Source: a phage. Taken from it: a stretch of 44,039 nt of DNA. Positions 1-32,245 of this stretch are shown here, piece after piece. The notes beneath the pieces were generated by a model. That model had not been told where the DNA came from, made no database searches, and saw only the letters and a list, made by a program, of their open reading frames with translations. Positions within the stretch are counted from its first letter, which is position 1. The number at the start of each line of letters is the position of its first letter. The stretch lies in assembly GCA_030821775.1 (NCBI GenBank), contig GCA_030821775.1_4700.1; one strand, written 5' to 3'. Position numbers and translations under genes: made by a program.

Positions 1-48
1 AAAAAAAAAAAAAATAGCCCTACCTCACGGGTAGCGAGATAGGGCATA
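1..48 (-). terminator. Rho-independent terminator after the major capsid gene
   Basis: On the minus strand a GC-rich imperfect hairpin (plus ~17-48, arms GCCCTA/TAGGGC) is followed by a 14-nt U tract (plus A14 at 1-14), ~50 nt past the capsid stop. Confidence 0.6.
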
Positions 49-96
49 GGTTATTACTCGTTCTTAGCTTCCGGCTTGATAGCAGTCGGCTTAACG

Positions 97-1260
97 TCAG
101 CCGCCAGTACCGGTAGCTACCAGATCTTCAGCAGGCATGAGGGCAGCAGCGGCAGCACCTGCCGGAGCGGCATTCTTGACATACACAGCTTTGCGCTGTG
201 CACGGCTAAGAACTTGAGTGTGCTGTTCTCCATCAGCACTCACGGCACCACCATTAGATGTGTCACGCTTAGTTGTTACAACAGACACTGCTTCCCAGCG
301 ATCAGGGATTGCGCCTTCAGACATGAAAGTATCAATATAGTAGGTCTTCTCTTTCTTCTCATAGAAAATGTCACCTGTTAAATCAATGGAACGACCCACA
401 AGCAGAGCGTCAGATGTGAACAGTACAGCAATAGCGCCATTCATTTCTGCAATCGGGTCATAACGATAACCGTTGTCTTCATTGGAAAGCAGGTGATGTT
501 TCTGACCCGGAGAGAATTTAGGGAAGCGGTTAGACGGGATAACAGGGCAGTTGTAAGAAGACAGAACAAAGCCCTGAATGGTTGCACCAGACAGACTAAT
601 GGTGTAGGACTTATCAACAATGCGGTCTGCATCCCGCAGGCAGTTGAAGTATTTCCACGGCATCAGGATAGCTACATCAGAGATGTCTACTTCCTGCTCA
701 AGCTGCTGCTCCAGAGCAAATTCTACAGCCGCCATTACATACTGCGGGTTAGCCAGTGCTTCTGCTTCGTTGACCTCTACGTTGATAGAGAAGCCATGAC
801 CTTTAACACGTGGCGTATGACGTTTCTTAACAGTGTTGCGGATACCGCCAAGCAGCATCTGCTGAATCAGCATCTCGTCTTCCATCTTCTTAAGCTGCTT
901 GGCTTGGTTAGTAGCCAGCTTCGGCTTCAGGCTGTCAATGTCACCCTGTACATCGTGCAGGTGTGCAACGGTGTTACGAGCGATAACAGTGGCATCAATC
1001 ACCAACTGGTTTTTATCCGCCTGAGTAGAGGTTGCAGCCGGAGACTGACCCGGTGCCAGAACCTGCAACTCAGTTTCACCCAAGTATTTGTTGCTGACAG
1101 TGTTGGTGCCAGTAACGGTCTGAACATCGAAGTAGCTCATGATGTTCTCGCCTTTCAGGTACTGCTCATTCACCTTACCGTTAAACTTCTCAATGAGAAG
1201 ACTATCTACCTCACCAGAAGCGGAAATAGCAACGTTGGTCAGATTGTTCGGCGTAGACAT
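97..1260 (-). CDS. Major capsid protein (T7 gp10-like)
   Basis: 387-aa ORF with ATG and AAGGAG SD, directly after the scaffold gene, preceded by a phage promoter and followed by a terminator, as in T7-like phages. Confidence 0.8.
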   Translation of the reverse strand: MSTPNNLTNVAISASGEVDSLLIEKFNGKVNEQYLKGENIMSYFDVQTVTGTNTVSNKYLGETELQVLAPGQSPAATSTQADKNQLVIDATVIARNTVAHLHDVQGDIDSLKPKLATNQAKQLKKMEDEMLIQQMLLGGIRNTVKKRHTPRVKGHGFSINVEVNEAEALANPQYVMAAVEFALEQQLEQEVDISDVAILMPWKYFNCLRDADRIVDKSYTISLSGATIQGFVLSSYNCPVIPSNRFPKFSPGQKHHLLSNEDNGYRYDPIAEMNGAIAVLFTSDALLVGRSIDLTGDIFYEKKEKTYYIDTFMSEGAIPDRWEAVSVVTTKRDTSNGGAVSADGEQHTQVLSRAQRKAVYVKNAAPAGAAAAALMPAEDLVATGTGG

Positions 1261-1314
1261 ATAATAAAATCTCCTTATAAATCAAGTGGATATTTAGGGA
1301 GGCAATACCTCCTT

Positions 1315-1332
1315 CTATAGTGTCCCCTAAAT
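1315..1332 (-). promoter_or_regulatory. SP6-type phage promoter driving the capsid gene
   Basis: Plus strand CTATAGTGTCCCCTAAAT is the reverse complement of ATTTAGGGGACACTATAG, one mismatch from the SP6 consensus, between scaffold and capsid genes. Confidence 0.75.
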
Positions 1333-1336
1333 AGGG

Positions 1337-2254
1337 TTACAGGCCTTTAGCCATGCCAGCGCGACGGCGAGCATCCAGACGAGCCTGTGCCTCAGCCATA
1401 CCTTTACGGTCACTACCGAAGCGCTCACCCAGCTTGGAAATCTCACGAATGTACTGGTCACGGCTTAACGGGGAGTTATCGCCACCAGACGGCGCTGCCT
1501 GAGACGGCTCGATGAGGTTAGGCTTATCGTCGCCCTGTGCTGCCTTACGGCGACCTTCCAGTTCACGCACTGCGTACTGCTGTAGGTACTGGTTGCCAGA
1601 TTCCATGACAGCATTGAAGGCAGTCAGTTCGTCATCAGACAAGGTTTCAAGCGCCCACTCCTCAAGACGTGCCCATCCATCTTCCCCGCCGACTTCCTTA
1701 GAAATGTCAGTGAAGCGCTGGGCATTAGCTGCTCCCGCCTCTTTAGCTGCATTGGCTTCTTTCAGGAAGAATGCCTCGTTCTGTGCCTTGAGGCCAGAAA
1801 GGTAAGCATCTACTGCAAACTTGCCAAAGGCATCATACAGTTTCTGCTTGGTTTCATCGGACAGTTCAAACTTGCCATCTTTGGCATAGAGTTCCTTGGC
1901 TACCTGATTGGCATCAATGCCTTTCTCTTTAAGGCTATCAGTTACATCCTGCGGGATTTCTATTGTTACTTCATGTTCTCCGAAGAAGTATTGCACTTCC
2001 TCAGTGTCTGTCTTGGTGTCATCTGGCTTAGATTCACCATTCTCTCCGCCATTGTTTCCTTCTTCTGAAGGCTGTCCAGAATCTCCTCCTCTGGTGTCTT
2101 CAGTACGCTGTGCACCAGCATTGTCATCTTGTACATCAGCACCAGTGTCAGTAGAAACATCAGTAGTAGCATCAGTTGTTACCTCCTCAGTTGCTGCTAC
2201 GCTTGGCTCAGCAGTAGGGTGCGTAGTAGTTGGTTCATTGAATGAAAAGCTCAT
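1337..2254 (-). CDS. Capsid assembly (scaffolding) protein
   Basis: 305-aa acidic ORF between portal and capsid, start overlapping the portal stop (TAATG); size and position match T7 gp9. Confidence 0.7.
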   Translation of the reverse strand: MSFSFNEPTTTHPTAEPSVAATEEVTTDATTDVSTDTGADVQDDNAGAQRTEDTRGGDSGQPSEEGNNGGENGESKPDDTKTDTEEVQYFFGEHEVTIEIPQDVTDSLKEKGIDANQVAKELYAKDGKFELSDETKQKLYDAFGKFAVDAYLSGLKAQNEAFFLKEANAAKEAGAANAQRFTDISKEVGGEDGWARLEEWALETLSDDELTAFNAVMESGNQYLQQYAVRELEGRRKAAQGDDKPNLIEPSQAAPSGGDNSPLSRDQYIREISKLGERFGSDRKGMAEAQARLDARRRAGMAKGL

Positions 2255-3804
2255 TAGCCCTCCTGTAATCCTTGTTGAATGACATTAGGTACAGCCTTAG
2301 CCACACCTTCGTTAAGCATAGCCGCCTGCTGGTCCTCCATCGCCTGCTCAGCTTCCTTGCGTAGCTGCTCCTCAGTCTTGAGGAATGGGAGTTCTGCGGA
2401 AATCTGACCGCGTACCCAGTCCATATAGTCAGGCCAACTTATAGCTCTCTGTGCAGATTCAGGCCATGTCTGAGGCAGTGACATGTACTGTGCAAAGGTA
2501 GCCAGCTTGTCTAACTCAGCCATGCGGCCTAGCGCCTCAATACCTGTCACAATCACAGGGTCTACCAGTTCGTTAGTGAAAGAATCACCAGTCTCCAGCA
2601 AGCCCCACATTGCGATAGGTGTCTGCATGGTTACAGCGAATAGGGAGTACACGCCACCCATGTTCTGCTCAATCTCCAGCGCATCACGCTGAATCTCAAC
2701 GGCGGTCACACGTTCTGCATCACGACGAGTTAATGCTTCCATCATGAACACAGTACCAACGCGGCGAGTGTATACCTCAAGCACAGCACTGATTGGTGTC
2801 AGGTCTGCATACTTCCCAAGCTGTACGATGTGGATATCCTCCTCTACACCAGTGATAACCTCACCAGTGCCTGAGTTAACAAAGTGGTCAACATCTGTCT
2901 GAGCGCCGGGACGAATAAGGTACTTGATGTCAGCCATAAGTGCAGCGCCACGCGCCACAGCTTCTGACAGGAACTGGATAACGAACAGGTCGCCAGAGTA
3001 ATCCTCGGCAAGTGGACGGCCCCAATCTTCACCGTAAGAGCGCTTCCATGTCAGTGGAATGAAGGGTAGTTTCTCCTTCTTGATGCGATTCTCTTCTCCT
3101 ACAGGGATATCGTCAGCAGATTGCTTGATCTCCCAGAACCCATCGCCTTTGTACTTAGCGTGAGTGTACAGCTTAACGTTGTCCTCACCTTTGCACTTCT
3201 TGCCTTTCATCGCAACTTCTATAGCCATGCGTGTTGCATGGTCGAAGGTCTTCAAGGCTTTCTCTTGCAGGAGAATAATGTCCAGCAAGTCACCGTTAGT
3301 GTCACGGTTAACGACATAGTGGTGCATCGGGACGGCGCTAATCGCACCTTCCTTCGGCTTGTAAAGCAGGCAGCTACCAGCAACGATAAGGTGCTTAAAT
3401 GCCTCAACGATTGCCGGACGGAACTGGCGCTGCTCCAGTGATTTCATAGCATTAGTTTCAACGCGAGCAAAGATAGTAGCTAGCTGAGTCTTCTTCATAC
3501 CTCGCTTGGCAAGGATTTGTTCACCATTAACCGTAAGGTCTACACGGAAGAAGGAACGTTGTGCAGGGAACAACACCTGCGCCAGCTTGTTGGCTAAGTG
3601 ATTAGTCGCTTGAGCGCCTACACCTTGCCAGCCATTCTGTGAAGTGTTGTTGTCACCTGTATCGTTCATCAGGTATGGAAGTGTCAACTTAGCGTAGTGT
3701 TTAGCCCTGTCAAGGAATGGACTACGCTTAGTAGAAAACTTCTCCCACAGCTTAGGAATCTTCGAACGCTTGCCACCATACGACATGTTGGTGTCATTGC
3801 GCAT
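2254..3804 (-). CDS. Portal (head-tail connector) protein
   Basis: 516-aa ORF with AGGAG SD, immediately upstream of scaffold and capsid; size and synteny match T7 gp8. Confidence 0.8.
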   Translation of the reverse strand: MRNDTNMSYGGKRSKIPKLWEKFSTKRSPFLDRAKHYAKLTLPYLMNDTGDNNTSQNGWQGVGAQATNHLANKLAQVLFPAQRSFFRVDLTVNGEQILAKRGMKKTQLATIFARVETNAMKSLEQRQFRPAIVEAFKHLIVAGSCLLYKPKEGAISAVPMHHYVVNRDTNGDLLDIILLQEKALKTFDHATRMAIEVAMKGKKCKGEDNVKLYTHAKYKGDGFWEIKQSADDIPVGEENRIKKEKLPFIPLTWKRSYGEDWGRPLAEDYSGDLFVIQFLSEAVARGAALMADIKYLIRPGAQTDVDHFVNSGTGEVITGVEEDIHIVQLGKYADLTPISAVLEVYTRRVGTVFMMEALTRRDAERVTAVEIQRDALEIEQNMGGVYSLFAVTMQTPIAMWGLLETGDSFTNELVDPVIVTGIEALGRMAELDKLATFAQYMSLPQTWPESAQRAISWPDYMDWVRGQISAELPFLKTEEQLRKEAEQAMEDQQAAMLNEGVAKAVPNVIQQGLQEG

Positions 3805-3805
3805 A

Positions 3806-4015
3806 TTACACTCCTAAGCTAGATGCTACCGGACGTACTAGGCCTCGCTTGCCTTTAGCTGAAGAGGTGGAAGTATCATCGCCGCCACCGACTTCGATAT
3901 CCTCAGCACCAACCTCTTGTTGACGCGCAAGCTGCTGTGCCGGAACCTTGGTTTCGATGCGAGGTGCATCTTGTGCTAGACCGACTGCCTTAAACGCTTT
4001 CTTAACTACGCCCAT
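3806..4015 (-). CDS. Small Gly/Ala-rich protein, possibly gp7.3-like virion protein
   Basis: 69-aa ORF with AAGGAG SD just upstream of the portal gene; the T7 gp7.3 analogy is positional only. Confidence 0.35.
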   Translation of the reverse strand: MGVVKKAFKAVGLAQDAPRIETKVPAQQLARQQEVGAEDIEVGGGDDTSTSSAKGKRGLVRPVASSLGV

Positions 4016-4024
4016 GTTATCTCC

Positions 4025-4537
4025 TTAGAACTTATGATTGTACACAGTGCCGAACGTTTCAAAACCTAAGCGGTTAAACATACGACCGACACGCTCTTCG
4101 TTGATACCGGAGGCGATAGACAGGCGAGCCTCAACACACGCCATAGACTCAGCCCACGCCTTGTACTCCTTGACTAAGCGCATACCCATTAATGAGCCTC
4201 GCTTCTCAGGAACCATATAGAATAGCATATCACTAGCCACAATAGCAGGGTTCCACGGAGCCATAGGGTGGGTCGCAGCCCACAGGAAGCCGACAACCTC
4301 TCCATCTTCCACTGCCACCCACAGAAACATATCGCTTCTTGTGAGTGACTGACAGAGGAAATGTGCGCTGGTTTCGGCATCCCATACGGCGCAATGATGA
4401 GCCACCTTCTTCACCTCTTCCTCAACATAACGATTCCCTAGGTTTATGATTGAGGGAATATCGAGAAAGGAGGCAGGACGAATCATGGATGCACCACGAA
4501 TTGTTGCCGAATGCAAGACAGGATATATCGCTTGCAT
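4025..4537 (-). CDS. GNAT-family N-acetyltransferase
   Basis: 170-aa ORF with an acetyl-CoA-binding-like motif (EKRGSLMGMRLV) and GNAT-like beta-strand pattern; start codon uncertain (no clear SD). Confidence 0.55.
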   Translation of the reverse strand: MQAIYPVLHSATIRGASMIRPASFLDIPSIINLGNRYVEEEVKKVAHHCAVWDAETSAHFLCQSLTRSDMFLWVAVEDGEVVGFLWAATHPMAPWNPAIVASDMLFYMVPEKRGSLMGMRLVKEYKAWAESMACVEARLSIASGINEERVGRMFNRLGFETFGTVYNHKF

Positions 4538-4627
4538 TCATCCCAAAGTAACTCTTCGTGAGTCTTATCAGGACGAGGACGGGATGGTTGAAGAATTAGG
4601 TTCTCCAGCATCTCCATCCCCTCAAAA

Positions 4628-4825
4628 TTAATCGTCGGTTTCTTCTTCGTCGTCACCGTAAAGCTCCTCGACTTTCTCTTTAATTGCCTCGATAGACAGG
4701 CCAAGCTCTTCGGCCTCTGCAAGAATAGTGTAAGGTGGAGTCATGCCGCATGAGTAACTTTCAAAGATAGCCTCTGCTACCTCAACGGCACGAGTTGCCT
4801 TCATGGAATCAAATACTTGTGTCAT
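4628..4825 (-). CDS. Small acidic hypothetical protein
   Basis: Track ORF 4628..4879 trimmed to the first ATG (MTQVFD...); C-terminus is acidic (GDDEEETDD); upstream of the GNAT gene. Confidence 0.35.
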   Translation of the reverse strand: MTQVFDSMKATRAVEVAEAIFESYSCGMTPPYTILAEAEELGLSIEAIKEKVEELYGDDEEETDD

Positions 4826-5243
4826 GTTTCCTCCATTTACCTGCGAGCACAAGGCCCACATATGAACGAGACATACCAAGTATATCGGAGATACGTTGTT
4901 GTGTGAGGCCTTCTTCTCTTAATTTAAATACTTTAGCTATAGTTTCATTATTAAATTTGCATACTCCAGATTTCTCTCCACTTGCAGTTCTTCCCTTACG
5001 CTGCCTGTCTTCCATGTTCTCTTTATGTGAACCTAATACAAGGTGTAAAGGGTTTATGCAGCGAGGATTGTCACAAGTGTGCATGATGACCTTGCCTTTT
5101 ATATCAGATAGACTGACATTATTATAAGAACAGTAAGCAGCACGGTGAGCAGGGGTTGTTTTACCTTCAAACTTCACAGAGCCATAACCTTTATGGTTTC
5201 CCTTTTGCCGATGATCAATACACATCAGGTACTTCCTTATCAT
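4809..5243 (-). CDS. HNH homing endonuclease with C-terminal HTH
   Basis: 144-aa ORF with HNH-type residues (GYG...H...CDNPRCINPLHL) and a C-terminal HTH (LTQQRISDILGMSRSYV); overlaps the 3' end of the ligase gene. Confidence 0.7.
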   Translation of the reverse strand: MIRKYLMCIDHRQKGNHKGYGSVKFEGKTTPAHRAAYCSYNNVSLSDIKGKVIMHTCDNPRCINPLHLVLGSHKENMEDRQRKGRTASGEKSGVCKFNNETIAKVFKLREEGLTQQRISDILGMSRSYVGLVLAGKWRKHDTSI

Positions 5244-6162
5244 GTCTTAGTTCTGAAACTTTAGGAAGGCGAAGAACCCCTTTACTAGACTCTTGTAATG
5301 CCTTAACAGCAAAGATTCTACCAATGACATTCATCTCACCACCATTTTTAATATCATGATACATCTGTGCTGCATCCTCATGGGACCATCCACGCCCCAG
5401 CATGGCCTTAACAGACTTACCACCTTTCCATTTAAAGATTAAATTAGCTACCTTACCTTTATACTTACCCTTTCCTTCCTCCCACCCAATGCAGGTGAGG
5501 TCGTAAGATACCATACGCACGATCTTCGTTTGACGATAGCCCTTGTGCCCACTTTCATACTCCACATCAAGTTTGAATACAGCACCCTCTCGGCCTGCAT
5601 CTATTTGCTCTTGAGCAAACGCTTCAACTTCTCGCTCATTATGGCAAGGGGTAATAGGAAGGATAGCGTTGTACCCGCTAAGATGAGAGCCGATGCGACG
5701 ATGTAAAGCATCGTAACGTTTGAGATAAGAAACATCAGTGAATCCATCATGGAATGCCTTAATGGTTAGCATATCGAAGAAGTCGATATACAGGTTGTCT
5801 TTAATCTGCTGGCCTATGAAATCAAGTGGCTCGGTGCGGTTAGGGTTCACAACCCCAGAGATTGCCTCAAGGTAGATATCAACGGCCATAGACTGAAGCT
5901 CACCAAGATAAACGCCAACCGGAAAGGTAGCAAAGGTTTGTTCGAGGCCTTCAGTGTTTGCCAGTTTCTTACCAGTGCGACCAAAAATGCCAACGACACC
6001 ATCAGCGCGAACAACAACAGCAGAAAAGATACCATCTCGTTTCACCTGTGCATAACATGGAAAAGTAAGTTTCTTCTCAGGTACTTCACCGCGATGCTTC
6101 ACCAGCATGAATGGGTGGTTGCGGTGATCTTCGGGAAGGCCTAGGAATTGGAAGATGTTCAT
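5215..6162 (-). CDS. ATP-dependent DNA ligase
   Basis: 315-aa ORF with the nucleotidyltransferase KxDG motif (VKRDG) and strong SD GAAGGAGG. Confidence 0.8.
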   Translation of the reverse strand: MNIFQFLGLPEDHRNHPFMLVKHRGEVPEKKLTFPCYAQVKRDGIFSAVVVRADGVVGIFGRTGKKLANTEGLEQTFATFPVGVYLGELQSMAVDIYLEAISGVVNPNRTEPLDFIGQQIKDNLYIDFFDMLTIKAFHDGFTDVSYLKRYDALHRRIGSHLSGYNAILPITPCHNEREVEAFAQEQIDAGREGAVFKLDVEYESGHKGYRQTKIVRMVSYDLTCIGWEEGKGKYKGKVANLIFKWKGGKSVKAMLGRGWSHEDAAQMYHDIKNGGEMNVIGRIFAVKALQESSKGVLRLPKVSELRHDKEVPDVY

Positions 6163-6350
6163 TTCACCTCCTTCATCACACCTTTGACTATTGCCTCTTT
6201 AAAGTGCGCTAAGTTAGAACCATAGGCACTTAAATACCACGTTGCACCTCCATCGTTAGAGGTCAATACAAAACCGCGAGGACTTACTTTATATAAGTTA
6301 CCGAAGTACCCTCTATACAGTTTACCTTCCATATCAAATATCCTCATCAA
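6159..6350 (-). CDS. Hypothetical protein
   Basis: 63-aa ORF whose end is translationally coupled to the ligase start. Confidence 0.35.
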   Translation of the reverse strand: MMRIFDMEGKLYRGYFGNLYKVSPRGFVLTSNDGGATWYLSAYGSNLAHFKEAIVKGVMKEVK

Positions 6351-6804
6351 TACATTCGTGACGATGCTTCTGGAATAACTCTTTGTAGTAGTCTGCTTTC
6401 TTCAGATCTTCTTCAGTGTTGAATTTCTTACCTGCACGCAGACGATACTTCAAAGCGTTACCCATGCAATACCCAGCGAATTGCTTCTCTGTCATGCTAC
6501 GGGCAATGATAGTGATTGCTTCTACACCTTCGAAGAACTCGTAGTGTTTAGGCTTAGTAACCATATTGTTGTCCAACATGTTGGACTCTTCACCTTGCAA
6601 TGGGTTAACAACTTTGAAATAAGGTGCATACCATTCTCGTTTCTCAACACCATCTAACATGATAGAGTTATAATTAAGTTCCGCATGAGTCACTTTGAAC
6701 ACTCCATCTGGTTTCTTGTTTAAACTTGCACAAAGGCTATTCCAGTTGGCGTCTCGGTAAGCTGCACGGCGTACTACGTATTCTCCAATATTGATCTTTG
6801 ACAT
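6334..6804 (-). CDS. Conserved phage hypothetical protein
   Basis: Track ORF 6334..6819; the start is more likely the ATG at 6804, which has a GGAGG SD. No recognisable catalytic motif. Confidence 0.5.
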   Translation of the reverse strand: MSKINIGEYVVRRAAYRDANWNSLCASLNKKPDGVFKVTHAELNYNSIMLDGVEKREWYAPYFKVVNPLQGEESNMLDNNMVTKPKHYEFFEGVEAITIIARSMTEKQFAGYCMGNALKYRLRAGKKFNTEEDLKKADYYKELFQKHRHECIDEDI

Positions 6805-6859
6805 AATTAAATCCTCCATTCACTATACAATCAAGGCAAGCTAATACCTGCCCTTTGTT

Positions 6860-6877
6860 CTATAGTGTCACCTAAAT
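6860..6877 (-). promoter_or_regulatory. SP6-type phage promoter
   Basis: Plus CTATAGTGTCACCTAAAT is an exact reverse complement of the SP6 consensus core; overlaps the stop codon of the phosphoesterase gene. Confidence 0.8.
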
Positions 6878-7882
6878 CTTGCCAATCCAGCGACCTTCAC
6901 TGTTTGTCTGCATCGGGATGATCTGCGGTACACCATCGATGATTACCAGACAACCCAGCGCTGGCTTGTACTTAGATTCCCGACCATAGGAGAATGCACG
7001 TGAGCCTTCGTCAATCAGGCAGCCACCTTGCGCAGCCCAGTATTGCTCGTGGCTGTTACTGGCATACTCGATAGACATCTTGCCATGCAAGTGACCACAC
7101 ACAAGATTCATACGCTCGTGTGCTGCATCGGTCAGAACTGCACCTGCTGGCTGGTGTTTGAATGCAACCTGCTCGCCGTTCGGCAGTTCCAGAATATGCG
7201 TGTGTTGCCACTCCCAACGCTCTCCTCCTCCCTGCGGGAAGAATACCTCACGGTATGTACGCAGGTACTGTACAGGGATGCCATGAGAGTGTGCCTTGCG
7301 GAAGTGCATAGAGCCGTGGTTAGAGTGACACAGGCGCATCACAGGGAACATACGGTGTAGCTTCTCCATGAAGACACGAGCCTTCTCAAGTTCCATGCCA
7401 GCAGAGTCAAGGTTGGGATCTGAATCGTGGAATGACATAGCATGTTTGTCTGCTTCATCACCAAGGTGGACAACTGTGTCCGGCTTGAACCGTGCAGCTA
7501 CAGCAGCCAAGAACTCCAGAGTATCTTGATGCTCATAAGGTGCGTGAGTATCTGGGATCACCAGAATGCTTCGATGAGGCGAGTCAGGCAGAGGTTTAAC
7601 AGCCAGATCTTCATAGCGATCAGGGTTGCGCAGCTTGCGTTGCTCCTTAATACGTTTGTTCTCTGGAAGAAGGGATTGGTAGTTGTCGCCATTCTTCTTC
7701 TTGGTCTTGAATTGACCATGCCAGTATCGAGCGAGTTGGCGAGTGATCTTCTTACCAACCGGATGCGCAGACAGGATGTGCGCCATTTCATTGTAGTTAA
7801 CATTACCTTTCTCGTCGGTAGCTTGCTCGATTGCGTCAAGCACCTCGGAGTCTTTAAACAGGCTACGAAGTTTAGCCACCAT
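6872..7882 (-). CDS. Calcineurin-like metallophosphoesterase
   Basis: 336-aa ORF with metallophosphoesterase signature blocks (VIPDTHAPY, HLGDEAD, GHLHG) and an AAGGAGG SD. Confidence 0.7.
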   Translation of the reverse strand: MVAKLRSLFKDSEVLDAIEQATDEKGNVNYNEMAHILSAHPVGKKITRQLARYWHGQFKTKKKNGDNYQSLLPENKRIKEQRKLRNPDRYEDLAVKPLPDSPHRSILVIPDTHAPYEHQDTLEFLAAVAARFKPDTVVHLGDEADKHAMSFHDSDPNLDSAGMELEKARVFMEKLHRMFPVMRLCHSNHGSMHFRKAHSHGIPVQYLRTYREVFFPQGGGERWEWQHTHILELPNGEQVAFKHQPAGAVLTDAAHERMNLVCGHLHGKMSIEYASNSHEQYWAAQGGCLIDEGSRAFSYGRESKYKPALGCLVIIDGVPQIIPMQTNSEGRWIGKI

Positions 7883-8285
7883 TTGCCTCCTTCTTCTTAC
7901 GTGAGTATGCTAAGCGAGCCTTGCGGTTGCGAGCCTCGCGCTTCTCTGCCTCAGTCTGGTGCTTGTGATACAGCCTGTCAGTCTGAGGTTTCTGGTGTAA
8001 CTTCCAGTAGTTCAGAAGATTCTCAAGCCATTTGATTTGGTAATACTTGCTGTTACCAGCCTTACCATAGCCAGAGATAATACCCTTAATCTTGCCCTCT
8101 GCACCATTGCATCCTCGGCATACCACAGCACGGCAGAAGCCTGTGTCATGGTCATGGTCGAGTACACGGTTTATGGCAGTGACAGCTTTAAGACTGCCAC
8201 CACACAAAGGGCATTTGTAACCTTGTACCTCCATTAGCTCCTGCTTGTATGCAGAAACCTCTGAGGCTTTCAGCTTGATTGCCAT
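7872..8285 (-). CDS. Endonuclease VII-like Holliday junction resolvase
   Basis: 137-aa ORF with an N-terminal CPLCGG zinc motif, DHDHD and CRGCN, the arrangement characteristic of T4 endonuclease VII-family resolvases. Confidence 0.65.
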   Translation of the reverse strand: MAIKLKASEVSAYKQELMEVQGYKCPLCGGSLKAVTAINRVLDHDHDTGFCRAVVCRGCNGAEGKIKGIISGYGKAGNSKYYQIKWLENLLNYWKLHQKPQTDRLYHKHQTEAEKREARNRKARLAYSRKKKEANGG

Positions 8286-9301
8286 AATTCCTTATCGCCT
8301 CCCCACAAGATAGGGTTCTTATCGGCTCGCCATATGTCACCTTTAAACCTTGCCATGTGAGCTAGGCGACCACATTCAAGCATCAGGTCAAAGGCTTTGC
8401 CAACCAGATAACCACCTCGGTAGTTCTTAATCTTAACTTGTCCATGTCCGAACTTAGCCTTGTAAGCACCAAGCACTGCCATGTACAACTCTTTCTCTGT
8501 CTTACAACCCTTGAGAAGATCATAGGCATACTTAGCACCACGTCCAGGTATGCCAGCGTAGTTATCAATATCATCACCGATAATCATCTGTGCATAGTGG
8601 AACATGAGGCCAGCACCTTTTAGGTCTTTGACTTGACCATTAGCCTTACGGCGTAACTCAAGCCAACCCATAGGCTCTACCCACTTCTTCTCTTGACCCG
8701 GCTGAAGGTGCCAACCGGGTACAATCATCAAATCCTTATCCAAGGAAACGATGCAAGTATCAGAGAATGCTTTATGCTCTGGACTACCGATAGGGAATTC
8801 GTTACCTGTATCTTGCTGGAAGCGGCGGTGGCTGTCCCATTGTGCAATACTCATGAGGTCATCTGCTTCTTCTCCATCTGCCAAGATTGCACCATGAACC
8901 TCTAAAAGATGCTCTCGCAATTCATAGAAGAATGGAGGTTTCTCGGTCTTACGTTGACCCTTATAAGGTTTGGTGAAGGCTAGGCGAACACGGAAGTTAG
9001 CTTCTGATTTCGTCATGAATAACTTAGCTGCATCACACTCTGCTGCATACACCCAAGAGTTGAGCAATGAGTTCACACGGTCACACGCTTGCTTACACTC
9101 AGGTGTATCTTTGATTGATGGGACTTGCCCTGACTTAACACGAGTTGTGGCTCGTACATAAGTCATGTCACTGATAGTATACCCGACGATGTAGGATAAC
9201 ATGTCAGCGTCTATTAAAGCAATTCGATTACCTTCAGTTGGCCACAGGATGAAATTATTGTCTTCCGACACTGTAGCTCCGAAGTAGAAGTTTGGTCGCA
9301 T
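8270..9301 (-). CDS. 5'-3' exonuclease (FEN / PIN-domain family)
   Basis: Contains IALIDADMLSY and GEEADDLMS acidic motifs typical of 5' nucleases. Track ORF extends to 9358, but the ATG at 9301 has an AAGGAG SD. Confidence 0.75.
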   Translation of the reverse strand: MRPNFYFGATVSEDNNFILWPTEGNRIALIDADMLSYIVGYTISDMTYVRATTRVKSGQVPSIKDTPECKQACDRVNSLLNSWVYAAECDAAKLFMTKSEANFRVRLAFTKPYKGQRKTEKPPFFYELREHLLEVHGAILADGEEADDLMSIAQWDSHRRFQQDTGNEFPIGSPEHKAFSDTCIVSLDKDLMIVPGWHLQPGQEKKWVEPMGWLELRRKANGQVKDLKGAGLMFHYAQMIIGDDIDNYAGIPGRGAKYAYDLLKGCKTEKELYMAVLGAYKAKFGHGQVKIKNYRGGYLVGKAFDLMLECGRLAHMARFKGDIWRADKNPILWGGDKELWQSS

Positions 9302-9486
9302 GTAGGCCACTCCTTTAAGAAGCAGGACACCGCATCGTGGAGGTTCTGTATTAACCAATAGTCATCCCACTGCCTCCCCTCCACCAGCTTTTCACCCGTT
9401 CGGTAATCATAGGCTATCCCCACGTACTGTCTGGTGATTTCATCGTAGCGAGTGCCCATTCTAATTCGTGATTCAATAGTCGGCAT
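9214..9486 (-). CDS. Hypothetical protein (uncertain)
   Basis: 90-aa ORF overlapping the exonuclease start by tens of nt in another frame; no recognisable motif. Confidence 0.25.
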   Translation of the reverse strand: MPTIESRIRMGTRYDEITRQYVGIAYDYRTGEKLVEGRQWDDYWLIQNLHDAVSCFLKEWPTCDQTSTSELQCRKTIISSCGQLKVIELL

Positions 9487-9551
9487 AATTCATTCTCCAA
9501 TAACTATTACGCAAAAGACCCTGCCTACACTAAGGCAGACAGGGGCATCAA

Positions 9552-9989
9552 TTATTCGACGTGACTCCACGCCTTGCGACTTCTAACCTTGTTAATCAAA
9601 TCTTTAGAGACACCTAGATTTTCTGCTAATGTCTTTGCAGATAGACTACAAGAACGTATGTACTTAACCTTATCAACATCTAACTTCTGGCTAGACCTTT
9701 TGGTTCTAATAGAAACATCAATCATGTTCTGGCTACGAGAACCCCAGCTTAAGTGATCAGGGTTACAGTACATCTTATTGTCGCAAGAATGAAGTACATC
9801 TTTTAAATCAGACTTGCCATGAAACACTTCACAGCTAACTCGGTGTACTGTTTCATTTCTACCTCCACCTGTAGCTATGTTTCCATAGCCATGAGAGCCA
9901 ACAGACTTCTGCCATATCCAGCACCCGTTACTGTCAACTCCCACGTTATCCTTGATCTTCTCTATGAGTGCATCGCGGCTTAGTCTCAT
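9552..9989 (-). CDS. HNH homing endonuclease
   Basis: 145-aa ORF with the canonical HNH_3-type pattern (GCWIW...GYG...HR...C.N..C.NPDHL). Confidence 0.8.
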   Translation of the reverse strand: MRLSRDALIEKIKDNVGVDSNGCWIWQKSVGSHGYGNIATGGGRNETVHRVSCEVFHGKSDLKDVLHSCDNKMYCNPDHLSWGSRSQNMIDVSIRTKRSSQKLDVDKVKYIRSCSLSAKTLAENLGVSKDLINKVRSRKAWSHVE

Positions 9990-9994
9990 TTAAC

Positions 9995-10369
9995 TCAAAA
10001 TTCCTCCTCTTCGCTTACCTGAACTTCCGGTGCAGCTACTTCTTCTACTGCCTGAGCTTCAGCTTCTTCAGCAGCCTTAACTTCTTTCACCGGCTTACCA
10101 GCAGCAATCCAATCCAGATACTCAGCTACGATATTAGCCTTACCGATCTGAGCTTTGTCAGCCTGCTCAGGGAAGCAAGCACGAGCGAACTCCAGACCAG
10201 CAGCGAAGTTACCCATGCTGTCAATCTTAGCCTGAGCTCCTTCACGAGTATCATAAGCCTTAGTGCCAGCTACCAGTTTGTTGGCTTCATCGACGATAAC
10301 GAAAGACTCAACGGATACCAGATCAGCACCTTTAACAACACGGTTTACGATAGTTTCGATAGTGAACAT
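9995..10369 (-). CDS. Hypothetical protein with acidic C-terminal tail ending in Phe
   Basis: Track ORF 9995..10399; probable start at the ATG at 10369 (AAGGAG SD). C-terminus ...VQVSEEEEF resembles the acidic aromatic tails of SSB-type proteins. Confidence 0.5.
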   Translation of the reverse strand: MFTIETIVNRVVKGADLVSVESFVIVDEANKLVAGTKAYDTREGAQAKIDSMGNFAAGLEFARACFPEQADKAQIGKANIVAEYLDWIAAGKPVKEVKAAEEAEAQAVEEVAAPEVQVSEEEEF

Positions 10370-10423
10370 ATTTAAATTCTCCTTTGTTAATTGTGGCATT
10401 ATCGCCGATTAAAATTCTCCCTT

Positions 10424-10441
10424 CTATAGTGTCCCCTAAAT
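10424..10441 (-). promoter_or_regulatory. SP6-type phage promoter
   Basis: Plus CTATAGTGTCCCCTAAAT (one mismatch to consensus) in the intergenic gap. Confidence 0.75.
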
Positions 10442-10456
10442 AGAGGACACCAATTT

Positions 10457-10472
10457 GTCCAACGCGTTGGAC
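10457..10472. repeat. Conserved palindrome, copy P1 (GTCCAACGCGTTGGAC)
   Basis: Perfect inverted repeat, member of the 8-copy TGTCCAAC-NN-GTTGGACA family; lies between the stop of gene 10473..10691 and the promoter at 10424. Confidence 0.8.
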
Positions 10473-10691
10473 TTACAGAACTGTGCTCACCTGCGCAATG
10501 TCGTGCGCCGGAAGTGACACGCCGTGGCGTTTACCGGTCGCGGGGTCACTGTAGTTCACCACATGCTGACCCTCGCGCCAGATATAGTGCAGGTTTGCGT
10601 ATGTATCCCCTTCAGAGAATGAGTGAAAAGTGTTACCGCCAAGCGTTGTGATGCCTTTCTTGCAGTGCAGGGTTACAATTTGTACTTTCAT
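10473..10691 (-). CDS. Hypothetical protein
   Basis: 72-aa ORF with ATG and AGGAGG SD. Confidence 0.5.
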   Translation of the reverse strand: MKVQIVTLHCKKGITTLGGNTFHSFSEGDTYANLHYIWREGQHVVNYSDPATGKRHGVSLPAHDIAQVSTVL

Positions 10692-10702
10692 TTAACCTCC
10701 TA

Positions 10703-11509
10703 TTAATATTCCGCGTCCTCGTCCATTTCTGGGGCTTCTACGTTCGTAGCTTCAGGTACTTCCTGCGGGACAGAAGCACCTGTGTCCAAAGGTTTGCGGT
10801 CTTCTGGAGTCGCGTCACTGTCTTTCTTCTTGGCCTTCTTCCACTCAGCATCGGCAGCGCGAGCCTCGGCGATAATGGCTTCAACATGAGAACCAGCAAC
10901 GGACAGGTTCTTACCGCGTGGTGTTTCGTTCAGCAGGTACTGACGGACAAGATGAGCAGGAATGCTGTCGATGATTCCGCGGGTCAGCTTGTCGAAGGTG
11001 ATGTGGCCTGTCATGGTTAGACCTTCTTCTTCCACCTGAGCCAGCACCAGCTTCTTGAGTTTATCAGGCATACCGCCGAAGCCTTTCCAGTTAACATACT
11101 TGAAAGTGCCATCTTCGTTCTTGCCACCCTTATCATCGCCAACCATGCTAACAGTCATGCACTCGCCGATGAAGTCATCGAAGCCACCAAGCAATTCTTT
11201 AGGGTCAACTGCATTCAGGAATTTGGTCAGCGTTGCCTTGTCACCAGACTTGAGCGGCACAGCCATCCACTGTTCCATGCGAGAACCATCCTCGTTCTTG
11301 TCACCGTCACCCATCAGGATAACCTTAACAAGAACAAAGTTAGCAGGCTTCTTCACCTCGGTAGTGTTACCTTTCTTGAAGATGTCTTGGAAGGAACCAA
11401 CGTGAATGATGCCAGAGATAACTGCCTCGTGATCACCAACTTCGGGATTCTTAAACACACCACCAGTAGCAGCAGCAACCTCAGCACCAAAATCAAAATT
11501 ACGAGCCAT
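10703..11509 (-). CDS. Putative ssDNA-binding protein (acidic C-terminal tail)
   Basis: Track ORF 10703..11557; ATG at 11509 has an AGGAGG SD. C-terminus ...EAPEMDEDAEY is acidic with a terminal aromatic residue, as in T7 gp2.5 and bacterial SSB; functional call is inference. Confidence 0.4.
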   Translation of the reverse strand: MARNFDFGAEVAAATGGVFKNPEVGDHEAVISGIIHVGSFQDIFKKGNTTEVKKPANFVLVKVILMGDGDKNEDGSRMEQWMAVPLKSGDKATLTKFLNAVDPKELLGGFDDFIGECMTVSMVGDDKGGKNEDGTFKYVNWKGFGGMPDKLKKLVLAQVEEEGLTMTGHITFDKLTRGIIDSIPAHLVRQYLLNETPRGKNLSVAGSHVEAIIAEARAADAEWKKAKKKDSDATPEDRKPLDTGASVPQEVPEATNVEAPEMDEDAEY

Positions 11510-11702
11510 TAATTTATTCCTCCTGTTGTTTGTTAGCTTTGTACTGAGCACAAGCATGTACTCACTAGAAAGCCCGATACTATATCGGGTTGTGCAAGAT
11601 GCACAAGAGGTTCAACACTTTACAATCATAGGACGTGCTTAGGATTTACGCTCACTGAGCACCTTGGATTTACTGTCTCTGACAAACCCACGTCCTATTG
11701 TT

Positions 11703-11720
11703 CTATAGTGTCACCTAATT
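11703..11720 (-). promoter_or_regulatory. SP6-type phage promoter (variant)
   Basis: Plus CTATAGTGTCACCTAATT; overlaps the stop of gene 11719..12096. Confidence 0.65.
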
Positions 11721-12096
11721 ATTTGGTCAGATTGTCTAACTCCATTTCCAGCATAACAATCTCTTTCTTCAGACTGTCAGATGCAGCTTGATGTACAATG
11801 GCAATGGATGCCTTGCGCTCTTCAAAGTCTGCCTTCAGGTTGTCACGCTCCTGCTGGTGACGTGCCATCATCTCTTCTACCTCTTTGACTTGACGCTCAT
11901 TCAGATCATCACGAGATGCATAGTAGCTATTGTGGCAGTCAATCATTTGAGAACTACGGTGTTCTTCAACTTCAACTTGTTCTGCCTGTACTGCTTCGAT
12001 GCGACCCTTGATTGCTTCAATAGCCTTGTACTTAAACTTATTAGCCAGACCACGAAAGTATTGAGCTACGAATACCAGAGTAGTTACCATTGACAT
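11719..12096 (-). CDS. Hypothetical coiled-coil protein
   Basis: 125-aa ORF with AGGAG SD; charged heptad-like sequence. Confidence 0.5.
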   Translation of the reverse strand: MSMVTTLVFVAQYFRGLANKFKYKAIEAIKGRIEAVQAEQVEVEEHRSSQMIDCHNSYYASRDDLNERQVKEVEEMMARHQQERDNLKADFEERKASIAIVHQAASDSLKKEIVMLEMELDNLTK

Positions 12097-12165
12097 ATTT
12101 ATATCTCCTATATTTACTTAATTACCTATACTACCTATAAGACCTTTATTACCTTGGTCTTCCTT

Positions 12166-12183
12166 CTATAGTGTCACCTAAAT
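12166..12183 (-). promoter_or_regulatory. SP6-type phage promoter
   Basis: Plus CTATAGTGTCACCTAAAT, exact consensus, between DNA polymerase stop and the next gene. Confidence 0.8.
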
Positions 12184-12223
12184 AAAAGGTAGAGAATTTA
12201 AGTGACACAAAGAAAGTTAACAA

Positions 12224-15346: not shown

Positions 15347-16030
15347 TTAGATTTTCACGTAGGTTTCTTCAGTAACGATAGGGAGGTACAGTAATTCTTC
15401 ACCATTCAAGATGTGAAGACCTTTCAATCCTTGCTTAATGATAATATCTTCTATGGTTTTAGCAAAATTGGTATTAGCTACACGACGAGGTGTGCCATGC
15501 TCTGTGATTGCATGGTCAACATCATGATTCGCACAGGTACATTAGGGTGCATCATGGCTTCACCAATCTTCACCATAGCTTGTCCGGTGGATTTACCAAG
15601 AGCACGAGTGTTAAACTGTGTAACACCTAATGCAGTGCCACACAGCTTAATCATTTCACTTTGGGTCTTACCAGTGATTACATTGCGGCGCTCTTTCTTG
15701 AGTGTGGTCTTTGCTTTGCCACATGCCTCTGCTAAAGTTTGAATGCCACCACTATAGAGGTGTGCTGTAATATCACTTTCTGCATCTGGCGAGCGCACTT
15801 GTCGCAAATCTCATCATGTATGCACTTACATTGGTTGTTTACCTCTACAATCTTTTCAAGGTATTTATGTGCGTTCTTCTTGTTATAGAAAGCCTTAATA
15901 CCATTATCATATACTACATGATACAGGTTCTCACTTACATTATGCACTACACCATGACAACGATAGAGACGTGATGTTTATTGATGTTACGAACATAATC
16001 ACCTACATTCAATACTAATTTATACATAAT
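15347..16030 (-). pseudogene. Frameshift-disrupted gene, possibly a degenerate HTH-containing homing endonuclease
   Basis: Four consecutive minus-strand ORF segments in different frames (about 27 aa, 71 aa, 109 aa, 64 aa) tile this ~680-bp region; includes a Cys cluster (CKCIHDEICDKC) and an HTH-like stretch (TQSEMIKLCGTALGVTQFNTRAL). Confidence 0.4.
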
Positions 16031-24440: not shown

Positions 24441-24590
24441 TTACGCAGAAGATGCAGAAGGTTTCTTCATGGCACGACGTTGAACATCCTTGGCAATGGT
24501 ATAAGCCTGCTTAGGGTCACGTCCTGATTGAATAAGCTCTTCTGTGTTCTGGAGTACAGCAGCTTGCTTAACTGATTTTATTAAGGGCAT
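24441..24590 (-). CDS. Small ORF (49 aa) after the distal tailspike gene
   Basis: Hand-translated MPLIKSVKQAAVLQNTEELIQSGRDPKQAYTIAKDVQRRAMKKPSASSA; AGGAGG SD overlaps the tailspike stop. Last ORF before the terminal region. Confidence 0.35.
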   Translation of the reverse strand: MPLIKSVKQAAVLQNTEELIQSGRDPKQAYTIAKDVQRRAMKKPSASSA

Positions 24591-24601
24591 TCAACCTCCT
24601 A

Positions 24602-26314: not shown

Positions 26315-26399
26315 GTAACCTCCTTTTCTGAAAGGCTACCACCATGATAACCTTTAAGAAAAGTTGCGTGAAAAGCAGTGCTTACGCACTGCCTGTTGC

Positions 26400-28298: not shown

Positions 28299-28382
28299 GC
28301 TATCTCCTATTACTTCCCAACCCTCCCCATGAAGATTGGCTAGTAATAGGCCGCTCAAAAGAACGGCACTATCTTATCTCTT

Positions 28383-28400
28383 CTATAGTGTCTCCTAAAT
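28383..28400 (-). promoter_or_regulatory. SP6-type phage promoter upstream of the tailspike genes
   Basis: Plus CTATAGTGTCTCCTAAAT ~85 nt upstream of the tailspike 1 start. Confidence 0.7.
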
Positions 28401-28429
28401 CTGAAACCATTGATACATAAAGGTATGTA

Positions 28430-28615: not shown

Positions 28616-28712
28616 GATTCGCTTCACGTTGAGCCTCCTTCTGCTCTTGTTCTCGCTTGTAGGCAACCAGCAGGCCAAGTAGACCTGCCAGCACCTTAAG
28701 CAGCTTATTCAC
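28503..28712 (-). CDS. i-spanin-like protein (N-terminal transmembrane helix)
   Basis: 69-aa ORF with one N-terminal hydrophobic helix (LLKVLAGLLGLLVAY) then a charged region; alternative start and no SD; shorter than typical i-spanins. Confidence 0.4.
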   Translation of the reverse strand: MNKLLKVLAGLLGLLVAYKREQEQKEAQREANHASDNPADWFADHFRVRDGVTRTPNQADADGSVRSRR

Positions 28713-29313: not shown

Positions 29314-29315
29314 TA

Positions 29316-29600: not shown

Positions 29601-29615
29601 GTAATCCTCCTCTTC

Positions 29616-30031: not shown

Positions 30032-30049
30032 CTATAGTGTCCCCTAATT
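30032..30049 (-). promoter_or_regulatory. SP6-type phage promoter (variant) at the 3' end of the large terminase gene
   Basis: Plus CTATAGTGTCCCCTAATT overlapping the terminase stop codon. Confidence 0.6.
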
Positions 30050-31946
30050 ACCAAGTCCTTGATATTCTTGAAGAAAGAGTATTTCGAGACTTGACCTGCA
30101 TCGTGGGTGCATTTCCGTAGACACGGCGCTGCATTGCCACTGACGTATTCACCTGTTTTCGATAACCGTGGTCTTGTCCTGTGAAGAACTCACGGCGACG
30201 GCGAGGGTCATGCATCATCTCAAGATAATCGCGCATCTCCTGCGCTCTGAGGCGATTTATCCGGTTAACCTCGTCATAGTCTATCTGAGAAGTTAATTGC
30301 CGTATAGCGCCGTACAGTGCGTCTAAGCGGTCATCATGTCGCAGGCACCCTTTCTCCAGAGTGATGTTCGAGATTTGAGCAAACAGGCTGTAGCTCATCC
30401 GAACCTCCAGAGGGTAGTGCTGGATGCTGTCAATGTCCTGCTTGATCATCTCAGCGTTGAAGATGATGCGGTGCGCGGAGAACAGCGGTTCAAGCGTCTC
30501 GATGATACGAACCTCTTTCTGACCGTGTGCGTAGTCTTCTTTCAACTCGGCAGGCCACTCACGTTCGAAGTATGGCTTAATTACCGCCTCAAACGCACCG
30601 TGACCGAAGTTCTTCTCTATGAAGACCTCTTTTACCCCTGCGGCCTTAGCCTCGCGCACAATGCGACTGAGCGCGTTCTCGGAGTATCCGCCAGGCACAC
30701 CGAAGCATTTATAGACGTAGATGAACGTCCCCAACAGGAATACGATAGCCACGCCAGTTTCGTCGCCGTTCTTACCGCCACCAGCGGGGTCAATGTACAT
30801 GACGCGGCGCTGGATTGGTCGCCACTCATACGGGCGTGCAACCGGACGGTACAGGTAGTCTGTAGGCTTGTTACCGAAGCGCGGAGCGTCACCAATCAAG
30901 TTGAGAGTGTCGTTGCTCCAAGTCGGCATCTCTGGGACAACATCTGTACCAAAGCTCATGCAGATAAGCTGGTTCAGGCGCAGGGGGTAACGGTCTGCGT
31001 CCATCAGGCGCGTGTTCAGCATGAACTGTAGCTGGAACTTAGCAGTACCTTGTGAGATTTCCTTCTCAATCAGCTTCTCGTCATCGTACATTTCAGGGCA
31101 AGTTGGAGCGCCCTGAGTCCCGTCGATGCCATAACCTGAGCGCAGTGACGGGTCTTCCATCATATCTTGGCGAATCATCGGTGCGAGGAAGTCGCCGTAG
31201 CAAGCCTCCTGCTCTAACGTTGGATACCGTCCGGGCCAGATTCGAATCTGATAGCCACGCGCTGGTAAGTTGTTGTAGATGGAGTTCACGCTCTGAGGCG
31301 TACCAAGGTAGATGATGTCACCGAACTGGTTGATTGATTCAAACTCTTTGGTCAGGTCTTCCAGCAAGGCACGGCCTGCTGCGGTACGGCTGTTCTGCAA
31401 CGATTCAACGTCATCAGCCAAGATGATGTCTGCACGAGCACCCTGCATACCCGCCTCGATAGAGTAGCAGGCCACGGACGGAGACTTGTCACTACCACGT
31501 AATGTGTAGTGAATCTCAAAGCCTTTGATTGAAGCCTTGTCACCTGCGTAGATGTCAGGCAACATGAACTCCAAGAAGTCCAGACCACGGAAGATTTTGA
31601 TAACCCAGCCTGCGATTTCCTCTGCACGCTTGGCTGTCTGCGACACAATCATGATACGCTTGTGTGGTTCATGGATGATACGAAATACAGAGTAGATTGC
31701 AGCGATTGTGGTCTTAGCCTGTCCACGCTGTGCCTCTACCATTCGATATTTGTTCCCACTGAATAGGAACTTTAAGATATCCGCTTGTACCCGATTCAAA
31801 TCAGGGTTGCCAGTGATTAATGTATTGATTACAACCTGAGCGAATGACAGAAGTCCCTGCACGGTATACGGGAATGTTTGTTGTAACTCGTGCAGCAACT
31901 CCCAACGGGCAAGGGCTTCTGCCTGAGATTCCCTTGCTTTTGCCAT
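30048..31946 (-). CDS. Terminase large subunit
   Basis: 632-aa ORF with AAGGAGG SD; start overlaps the small-subunit stop (TAATG); ATPase and nuclease-sized domains; position as T7 gp19. Confidence 0.85.
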   Translation of the reverse strand: MAKARESQAEALARWELLHELQQTFPYTVQGLLSFAQVVINTLITGNPDLNRVQADILKFLFSGNKYRMVEAQRGQAKTTIAAIYSVFRIIHEPHKRIMIVSQTAKRAEEIAGWVIKIFRGLDFLEFMLPDIYAGDKASIKGFEIHYTLRGSDKSPSVACYSIEAGMQGARADIILADDVESLQNSRTAAGRALLEDLTKEFESINQFGDIIYLGTPQSVNSIYNNLPARGYQIRIWPGRYPTLEQEACYGDFLAPMIRQDMMEDPSLRSGYGIDGTQGAPTCPEMYDDEKLIEKEISQGTAKFQLQFMLNTRLMDADRYPLRLNQLICMSFGTDVVPEMPTWSNDTLNLIGDAPRFGNKPTDYLYRPVARPYEWRPIQRRVMYIDPAGGGKNGDETGVAIVFLLGTFIYVYKCFGVPGGYSENALSRIVREAKAAGVKEVFIEKNFGHGAFEAVIKPYFEREWPAELKEDYAHGQKEVRIIETLEPLFSAHRIIFNAEMIKQDIDSIQHYPLEVRMSYSLFAQISNITLEKGCLRHDDRLDALYGAIRQLTSQIDYDEVNRINRLRAQEMRDYLEMMHDPRRRREFFTGQDHGYRKQVNTSVAMQRRVYGNAPTMQVKSRNTLSSRISRTW

Positions 31947-32245
31947 TAAGCCTCCTTAGCGAAAGCGATAACCTTACCTTGTGAAGCCTGTTTCAACTGA
32001 GCCAGACGCTTAGACAGCTTGGATTCCTCCTGTTGTGCTGCTGGCGTAGCGGTGATGCCGTTATCCAGCACCCACTTACACATCGCACCAACATCCTTAC
32101 CGGACACTAGGCCGATTGTCGCATCAGGGTTATCTTCGATTGCATCTAAGATAGCCTGTGCTTTCTTGTTGAACATCTTCGTAATTGCATTGTGTAGAAT
32201 ACCTACATCATCTTCCGATGCAGCATGTCTGTTATGATTGCTCAC
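31946..32245 (-). CDS. Terminase small subunit (T7 gp18-like)
   Basis: 99-aa ORF, GTG start with GGAGG SD, immediately upstream of and coupled to the large subunit. Confidence 0.6.
   Translation of the reverse strand: MSNHNRHAASEDDVGILHNAITKMFNKKAQAILDAIEDNPDATIGLVSGKDVGAMCKWVLDNGITATPAAQQEESKLSKRLAQLKQASQGKVIAFAKEA

Follow-up and report, generated by a model that had tools for sequence, protein, structure and literature searches.

We examined a 44,039-base stretch of phage DNA (GenBank assembly GCA_030821775.1, contig GCA_030821775.1_4700.1; referred to here as the window), which is a complete or near-complete SP6/K1E-like podophage genome (Autographiviridae, Molineuxvirinae) with its genes read from the minus strand. 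Our focus was an open reading frame (ORF) at 4809..5243 that overlaps the 3' end of the DNA ligase gene. This ORF was confirmed as a real gene, predicted to encode a nuclease of the His-Me/HNH family with a C-terminal helix-turn-helix (HTH) domain. We consider it likely, with some room left for doubt, that it is a free-standing HNH (His-Me finger) homing endonuclease gene (HEG), set as a cassette between the stop codon of the ligase gene and the start region of a small gp25-like gene. The window genome seems to have arisen through a homing event, in which a backbone like that of Salmonella phage PST_H2 was given the HNH gene together with a ligase tract of the Vectrevirus type. The main features of the locus were as follows.

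4628..4825, minus strand: gp25-like small gene, 65 amino acids, phrog_5860, Zindervirus-type allele
4809..5243 (144 amino acids, ATG at 5243) or 4809..5225 (138 amino acids, ATG at 5225), minus strand: HNH/His-Me endonuclease ORF
4826..4837, minus strand: codons for K-W-R-K at the C terminus of the HNH protein, AAATGGAGGAAA, containing GGAGG at 4830-4834 (read from the sequence)
4845..4949, minus strand: C-terminal three-helix HTH DNA-binding domain, residues 93-127
5007..5081, minus strand: catalytic His-Me finger core H-x-C-D-N-P-x-C-x-N-P-x-H-L...N-x-x-D, H49 to D73 (22-sequence alignment)
5215..5243, minus strand: overlap of the ligase 3' end and the HNH 5' end, holding both candidate ATGs and a Shine-Dalgarno sequence
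5215..6162, minus strand: ATP-dependent DNA ligase, Vectrevirus-type allele (Pfam, informative-site map, and sliding identity)
4810..6400, approximately 1.4 to 1.6 kb: Vectrevirus-like island (HNH gene, ligase gene, and a 63-amino-acid ORF) in a Zindervirus-like backbone

The strongest evidence for homing came from comparison of the DNA flanking the HNH gene. Genome-wide, the window is a mosaic of Zindervirus and Vectrevirus sequence. It was 92 to 98% identical to PST_H2, a Zindervirus, over 28500-44039 and 1-8000, except at approximately 4810-6400. We mapped the positions that separate PST_H2 and contig L015 from EC120 and contig L006. On this map, 7100-6850 was of the Zindervirus type, 6850-6400 (a poorly alignable part of the DUF3310 gene) was mixed, 6150-5200, including the whole ligase gene, was of the Vectrevirus type, and from 4799 downward the sequence was again of the Zindervirus type. 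One edge of the foreign island lies no more than ∼10 nucleotides (nt) from the HNH stop codon, and the upstream edge is fuzzy, falling somewhere in 6150-6850. We propose that the island is a co-conversion tract. We rejected the use of the tract boundaries to locate a cleavage position, because the upstream boundary falls in a nonhomologous DUF3310 stretch that would stop any recombination tract.

A second backbone carrying the HNH gene, L006, showed a comparable pattern relative to EC120. The two were 98 to 100% identical for kilobases on either side of the ligase/HNH region, 83 to 98% identical over the ligase gene, and 85% identical in the first 100 nt past the HNH gene; in this diverged stretch, L006 was as near to the window as to EC120, or nearer. 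Eleven ligase substitutions were common to the window and L006 and occurred in none of 20 HEG-less alleles. All of them lie in nt 597-948 of the gene, and 8 fall in the last 150 nt, adjoining the HNH gene. In two backbones, the HNH gene is accompanied by a foreign, linked ligase tract, as intronless homing with co-conversion predicts. On this evidence, drawn from comparison and not from a cross, flanking DNA appears to have been inherited with the HNH gene in two backbones.

We compared the arrangement between ligase and gp25 in the window, in 35 ligase loci from IMG/VR, and in 5 loci from GenBank and 3 from metagenomes. The two genes overlapped directly in ∼29 of these loci (PST_H2, SE29, P433.1, and most of the IMG/VR loci); the overlap was 11 to 20 nt, and the ligase stop codon TGA lay inside the F-D-S codons of gp25 (TTTGATTCC). 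Four loci (K1E, EC120, L021, and L023) had a 111-nt cassette with a 41-amino-acid ORF. The HNH gene, a cassette of ∼390 nt, was present in the window, in L006 and L007 (96% amino acid identity), and in L008 (59%). The remaining types were short gaps in L032 (4 nt) and L039 (42 nt), a 221-nt insert with an ORF of unknown kind in L033, and a 416-nt insert encoding a different HNH protein in L035. Because gp25 was not found in L022 or in L041 to L043, no junction type was assigned to them. The comparison of presence and absence at the ligase locus suggested with the original prediction thus placed the HNH gene in three lineages, and the window family was missing from the junction in ∼35 other loci where both ligase and gp25 were found. 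As the ORF is not universal, it is not a syntenic fixture of the whole group.

Database searches gave the same picture. GenBank phage records held no homologue of the window HNH protein at 60% or more amino acid identity; the best homologues there (∼44%) belonged to other Autographiviridae, at loci for primase, polymerase, or exonuclease. A collection of 5.8 billion proteins yielded two informative relatives, both encoded between ligase and gp25: P0001, 96% identical and found on contigs L006 and L007, and P0002, 59% identical and found on contig L008, from an SP6-like phage ∼70% identical to the others at the nucleotide level. An IMG/VR search with the HNH protein returned nothing above 42% identity and so added no further HEG-bearing loci, and an exact 24-mer of the ligase/HNH junction had 0 matches in the Joint Genome Institute (JGI) metagenomes. 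Among the fetched loci, there was no near-isogenic HEG-less partner for L008, the best being ∼70% identical. The presence of the HNH gene is sporadic, yet it is fixed to one site.

Two other occupants of this junction were examined. The L035 insert (L035:3387-3902, IMG/VR UViG_3300045988_045697) holds a 171-amino-acid HNH ORF with the motif DHINHRRDDNRFINLR that fills the junction, overlapping the ligase 3' end and ending at the gp25 start. Its Pfam HNH_3 score (23.8 bits) was just below the cutoff, and BLAST found no similarity between it and the window HNH protein. At least two families of nuclease occupy this junction. The 41-amino-acid ORF, MFIDLNEKQLELLIEAIEQYYYMWGYQSEELDSLYSQLKGG, occurs in EC120 (L003:2887-3012), with an unannotated equivalent in K1E (L004); it shares the cassette position, the ATG, and the first four codons with the window HNH gene and had no Pfam match.

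The edges of the HNH cassette could be placed closely. Its left edge comes directly after the ligase stop codon (...TATTGA, followed by T), and its right edge directly precedes the conserved TTTGATTCNATGAAGG of gp25, with the cassette supplying a new gp25 start (MTQVFDSMK...). At its 5' end, the HNH gene overlaps the ligase gene by 29 nt if translation begins at ATG 5243 and by 11 nt if it begins at ATG 5225. A Shine-Dalgarno sequence, AAGGAAG (5232-5238), lies 6 nt upstream of ATG 5225, which is also the ATG that opens the 41-amino-acid ORF in K1E and EC120 (MFID... versus MCID...). Gene callers chose the equivalent of ATG 5225 for P0001 (138 amino acids), and the sole candidate ATG in the L008 homologue is the upstream one, corresponding to 5243; thus, both starts are possible. 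At its 3' end, the HNH gene overlaps the first 17 nt of gp25, whose ATG is at 4825. The GGAGG within the K-W-R-K codons ends 4 nt ahead of the gp25 start, the corresponding GGAG in L008 lies 6 nt ahead, and a layout of this type recurs in both L006 and L008. We infer that GGAGG, although part of the last HNH codons, is the ribosome-binding site of gp25.

Around the cassette, a search for terminal inverted repeats and target-site duplications found only short repeats at chance level. The sequence ACATGAC at both edges is an apparent duplication too short to be significant, and the one shared motif was the 5-nt TTGAT, which occurs at the end of the ligase gene, at its stop codon, and again where gp25 encodes F-D-S. 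We also considered a transposon or insertion sequence and rejected it, as there was no transposase, no terminal inverted repeat, and no target-site duplication. The lack of such repeats and duplications fits a HEG and not a transposon.

The original prediction, made from the sequence alone, described an HNH endonuclease with a C-terminal HTH domain overlapping the ligase 3' end, and each part of this description held. The 144-amino-acid ORF matched the Pfam families HNH_3 (27.1 bits; cutoff, 24.8) and zf-His_Me_endon (27.6 bits; cutoff, 27) and HNH families of PHROG (E value, 1e-25), with subthreshold matches to HTH_23 and Sigma70_r4 at residues 103-129. In an alignment of 22 family members (residues counted from ATG 5225), the invariant columns were H49, C51, D52, N53, N58, H61, G65, N70, and D73, and all are kept in the window protein; the catalytic His, the metal-binding Asn and His, and the Cys and His zinc ligands are intact. 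An AlphaFold model built on this alignment (mean predicted local distance difference test [pLDDT] score, 85.8) has a core of a beta-hairpin and a helix followed by three C-terminal helices, a predicted separate DNA-binding module that could confer site specificity. The top Foldseek ranks for the model were I-HmuI and I-PpoI, both weak (E value, ∼0.02 to 0.03), and a sequence search of PDB gave marginal matches to I-PpoI (E value, 0.2), one HTH repeat protein, and nothing else.

Purifying selection acts on the HNH gene. The window and L006 copies differ by 18 synonymous and 5 nonsynonymous changes (proportion of synonymous differences [pS], 0.21; proportion of nonsynonymous differences [pN], 0.015; ratio, 0.07), and the codons for T50, C51, D52, N53, N58, H61, and N70 had synonymous changes only. 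Judged from these comparisons, the gene is functional. The HNH gene has a GC content of 39.8%, compared with 44.9% in the ligase gene and 47.5% genome-wide, and is probably of foreign origin.

Twelve SP6-type promoters were found on the minus strand of the window (ATTTAGGTGACACTATAGAAG, allowing up to 3 mismatches), against a chance expectation of none. The same search found no promoter between the ligase and HNH genes. A scan of 4000-7000 for sigma-70 promoters and terminators did no better than on shuffled sequence; it is irrelevant here because the operon is read by the phage RNA polymerase, and the SP6-type search is the informative one. The neighboring features were as follows, the first being the nearest SP6-type promoter upstream of the HNH gene.

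6857..6877, minus strand: SP6-type promoter, ATTTAGGTGACACTATAGAAC
6334..6819, minus strand: DUF3310 gene
6159..6350, minus strand: 63-amino-acid ORF between the DUF3310 and ligase genes
4025..4537, minus strand: GNAT acetyltransferase gene, which follows gp25 and a small ORF
2254..3804, minus strand: portal gene, beyond the GNAT gene and a 69-amino-acid ORF

From this arrangement, the HNH gene would be cotranscribed with the ligase gene from the ligase operon promoter, having none of its own, and its translation would be coupled to the ligase 3' end. Its last codons would supply the ribosome-binding site of the displaced gp25, and the insertion would therefore do little harm to the host genome. 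When a related phage without the HEG infects the same cell, the enzyme would be expected, as in its family, to bind through the HTH domain and to nick or cut the genome without the HEG, within the ligase-gp25 region or close to it. Repair by recombination, with the HEG-bearing genome as template, would then leave the recipient with both the HNH gene and the ligase allele next to it.

The sporadic occurrence at a fixed site, the foreign ligase tract in two backbones, the intact motif under purifying selection, the low GC content, and the HNH genes at neighboring junctions in relatives support the free-standing homing endonuclease that had been proposed from the sequence. It is important to note that some observations weigh against it. 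The window is mosaic on a large scale, with the tail-spike region at 24500-28500 and parts of 8000-14000 also EC120-like, and the patch beside the HNH gene may come from ordinary homologous recombination. The upstream tract edge in both genomes is the poorly alignable DUF3310 stretch and may simply mark where homology ends. Moreover, with only three HEG-bearing lineages known, the L008 copy may go back to an ancestral insertion that was lost repeatedly. Given the mosaicism elsewhere in the genome, there is a real alternative, which we nonetheless judge unlikely: the ligase-HNH island would have passed between co-infecting SP6-like phages by general homologous recombination, with the HNH gene as a passenger that has no part in its own transfer; it may then serve the phage, for instance, by attacking the DNA of a competitor or of the host. 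The nearby indel cassettes that hold no nuclease, namely, the 63-amino-acid ORF in the window and the 41-amino-acid ORF of K1E, agree with a passenger. However, a passenger would not account well for a patch edge so close to the HNH stop codon in the window, for a diverged tract centered on the HNH gene in the otherwise nearly identical genome of L006, an unrelated backbone, for private substitutions that grow denser towards the HNH gene, or for the use of the same junction by two unrelated HNH families.

It is less probable still, and in our view quite improbable, that the gene is a former HEG that has been domesticated or is in decay and is now functionless or encodes only a DNA-binding protein such as a regulator. 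It does lack its own promoter, it is tightly embedded between two genes, and truncated relatives exist elsewhere (for example, L080, with 117 amino acids), but the catalytic and zinc-binding residues are all kept, the low pN/pS ratio comes with synonymous-only changes at catalytic codons, and the motif is conserved down to the L008 copy. A chance ORF or annotation artifact can be given almost no weight. A 110-amino-acid ORF does overlap the HNH ORF on the opposite strand, but the Pfam and PHROG matches, the confident structural model, the purifying selection, and the homologues of the same length at the same site already refute this explanation. The homing endonuclease thus remains our preferred explanation, and the known homing mechanism probably operates at this locus. 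With slightly more doubt than conviction, we extend it as follows: the junction may be a hotspot of cassette exchange, where unrelated HNH genes and small ORFs swap, each reusing the coupling start in the ligase 3' end and each bringing a ribosome-binding site for gp25, and, with the HNH gene as its carrier, a complete ligase allele may have passed from Vectrevirus to Zindervirus.

The original prediction also pointed to repeated endonuclease invasion of this genome, citing a second HNH gene and a degenerate endonuclease-like locus. The former was borne out. A second HNH_3 gene of 145 amino acids lies upstream of the exonuclease gene (9552..9989, minus strand) and is 27% identical to the first; it occurs at ∼80% nucleotide identity in 3 Klebsiella phages (vB_KpnP_HY, KpnP_VR702, and IME184) and is missing from its site in ∼99 of the 102 matching related records. 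The degenerate locus was not found by homology: a tblastn search of the window with eight nuclease proteins from relatives recovered only the two HNH genes and endonuclease VII. The single degenerate locus that did turn up, at 15350-16027, bears no endonuclease signature.

HNH genes were also seen at other junctions in relatives. Between its exonuclease and endonuclease VII genes, PST_H2 encodes a 146-amino-acid "hypothetical protein" (L076:25226-25666) that is an HNH homologue, 36% identical to the window HNH protein (E value, 1e-27); the window does not have this ORF, and its exonuclease and endonuclease VII genes abut. An HNH gene between gp25 and gp26 in L018 (1169-1597, 142 amino acids) and L019 encodes a protein 42% identical to that of the window. 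The gp25-gp26 copy at L080:4001-4354 is truncated to 117 amino acids and has lost the HTH domain; it looks like a decaying HEG, which fits a cycle of invasion and decay. In EC120, an HNH gene separates the small terminase gene from the large one (L077:36045-36488), and in PST_H2 the large terminase gene is split by an annotated homing endonuclease (L076:2669-5313). The terminase genes of the window (30048..31946 and 31946..32245) are intact and adjacent. With HNH genes at so many junctions in relatives, repeated HEG invasion and decay in the group is well supported.

Some further observations concern other parts of the window. The 63-amino-acid ORF at 6159-6350 is itself a presence/absence cassette, found in the window, EC120, and K1E and absent from PST_H2, SE29, L015, and L006. 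Within the ligase gene, a stretch of ∼200 nt at 5600-5800 (ligase nt ∼360-560) was 96 to 98% identical between Zindervirus- and Vectrevirus-type alleles, synonymous sites included, compared with 70 to 87% for the parts flanking it; the same stretch in L008 was only 57 to 70% identical. This could reflect a recent sweep or a constraint at the nucleotide level. The region 24500-28500 holds two tail-spike-like genes (570 and 652 amino acids) that are 93 to 100% identical to EC120 with almost no match in PST_H2, and the adjoining structural genes are PST_H2-like; by this comparison, the region looks like a swap of a host-range module. Between the primase/helicase and DNA polymerase genes, 15350-16027 (minus strand) is the orthologue of a conserved hypothetical gene of 200 to 227 amino acids in PST_H2 and EC120, split over four frame segments (-2, -1, -3, -2). 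It had no nuclease signature and no Pfam family and is either a pseudogene or the result of indel errors in the assembly.

Comparison with known systems places the window HNH gene close to the free-standing endonucleases of T4, which cleave hundreds to thousands of bases from their own gene, with repair tracts that reach across the gene; the flanks are co-converted on transfer, and neighboring markers are excluded (PMC2988022). Like MobE and MobA of T4, it is a free-standing HNH gene in an intergenic position beside a conserved gene of DNA metabolism, and flanking DNA is co-converted on transfer (PMC2988022, PMC2790892), which here is seen by comparison only. Nicking has been measured for MobE and MobA, with nrdB and gene 39 as targets, whereas the window HNH gene is known from sequence alone, its host is an SP6-like podophage, and its neighbor is a ligase gene. 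T4 SegG likewise cuts at a site remote from the gene that encodes it, and a long stretch of the neighboring gene, on one side only, is carried along; in the window, the tract covers the whole ligase gene. SegH and Hef replace mobC and mobE, giving unrelated endonuclease genes at the same junction (cited in PMC2988022), as with the HNH family of L035. The Seg enzymes, in contrast, are GIY-YIG nucleases, and the evidence for the window is comparative only.

In domain layout, the window protein resembles I-HmuI of Bacillus phage SPO1 (PDB 1U3E), which also has an N-terminal His-Me nuclease and a C-terminal HTH in one monomer. However, the two share 18% identity and a low TM-score of 0.39, and I-HmuI is an HNH nicking endonuclease encoded by an intron in a DNA polymerase gene, whereas the window gene is free-standing. 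The window protein, in contrast to I-HmuI, has a zinc-type motif, C-D-N-P-x-C / H-L (HNH_3, zf-His_Me_endon), that is also I-PpoI-like. HEGs have further been described at the boundaries of exchanged blocks and recombination in ICP1 and other phages (Barth et al. 2023, PMC10448857). In those islands, as in the window, a nuclease gene stands at the edge of a foreign block with a replication gene; the window island differs in being small (∼1.5 kb), in having a HEG on one side only, and in that its family has an HTH domain and not the AP2 domain of the IPA-HNH genes.

On these sequence comparisons, the element belongs among the known free-standing HNH homing endonuclease genes of phages; its comparative footprint is unusually clear, and it changes no concept. 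Free-standing HEGs are believed to promote marker exclusion and the local exchange of genes when phages co-infect a cell, and direct evidence for this comes mostly from T4-like phages. Phage therapy makes use of SP6/K1E-like phages, which also serve as a source of RNA polymerase. In these phages, the locus provides a compact case, with two natural near-isogenic pairs (L006 versus EC120 and the window versus PST_H2), a defined insertion junction, and a visible tract of dragged ligase sequence. If the ligase gene was indeed carried across the genus boundary in this way, the HEG would be a vehicle for the exchange of replication genes in Autographiviridae.
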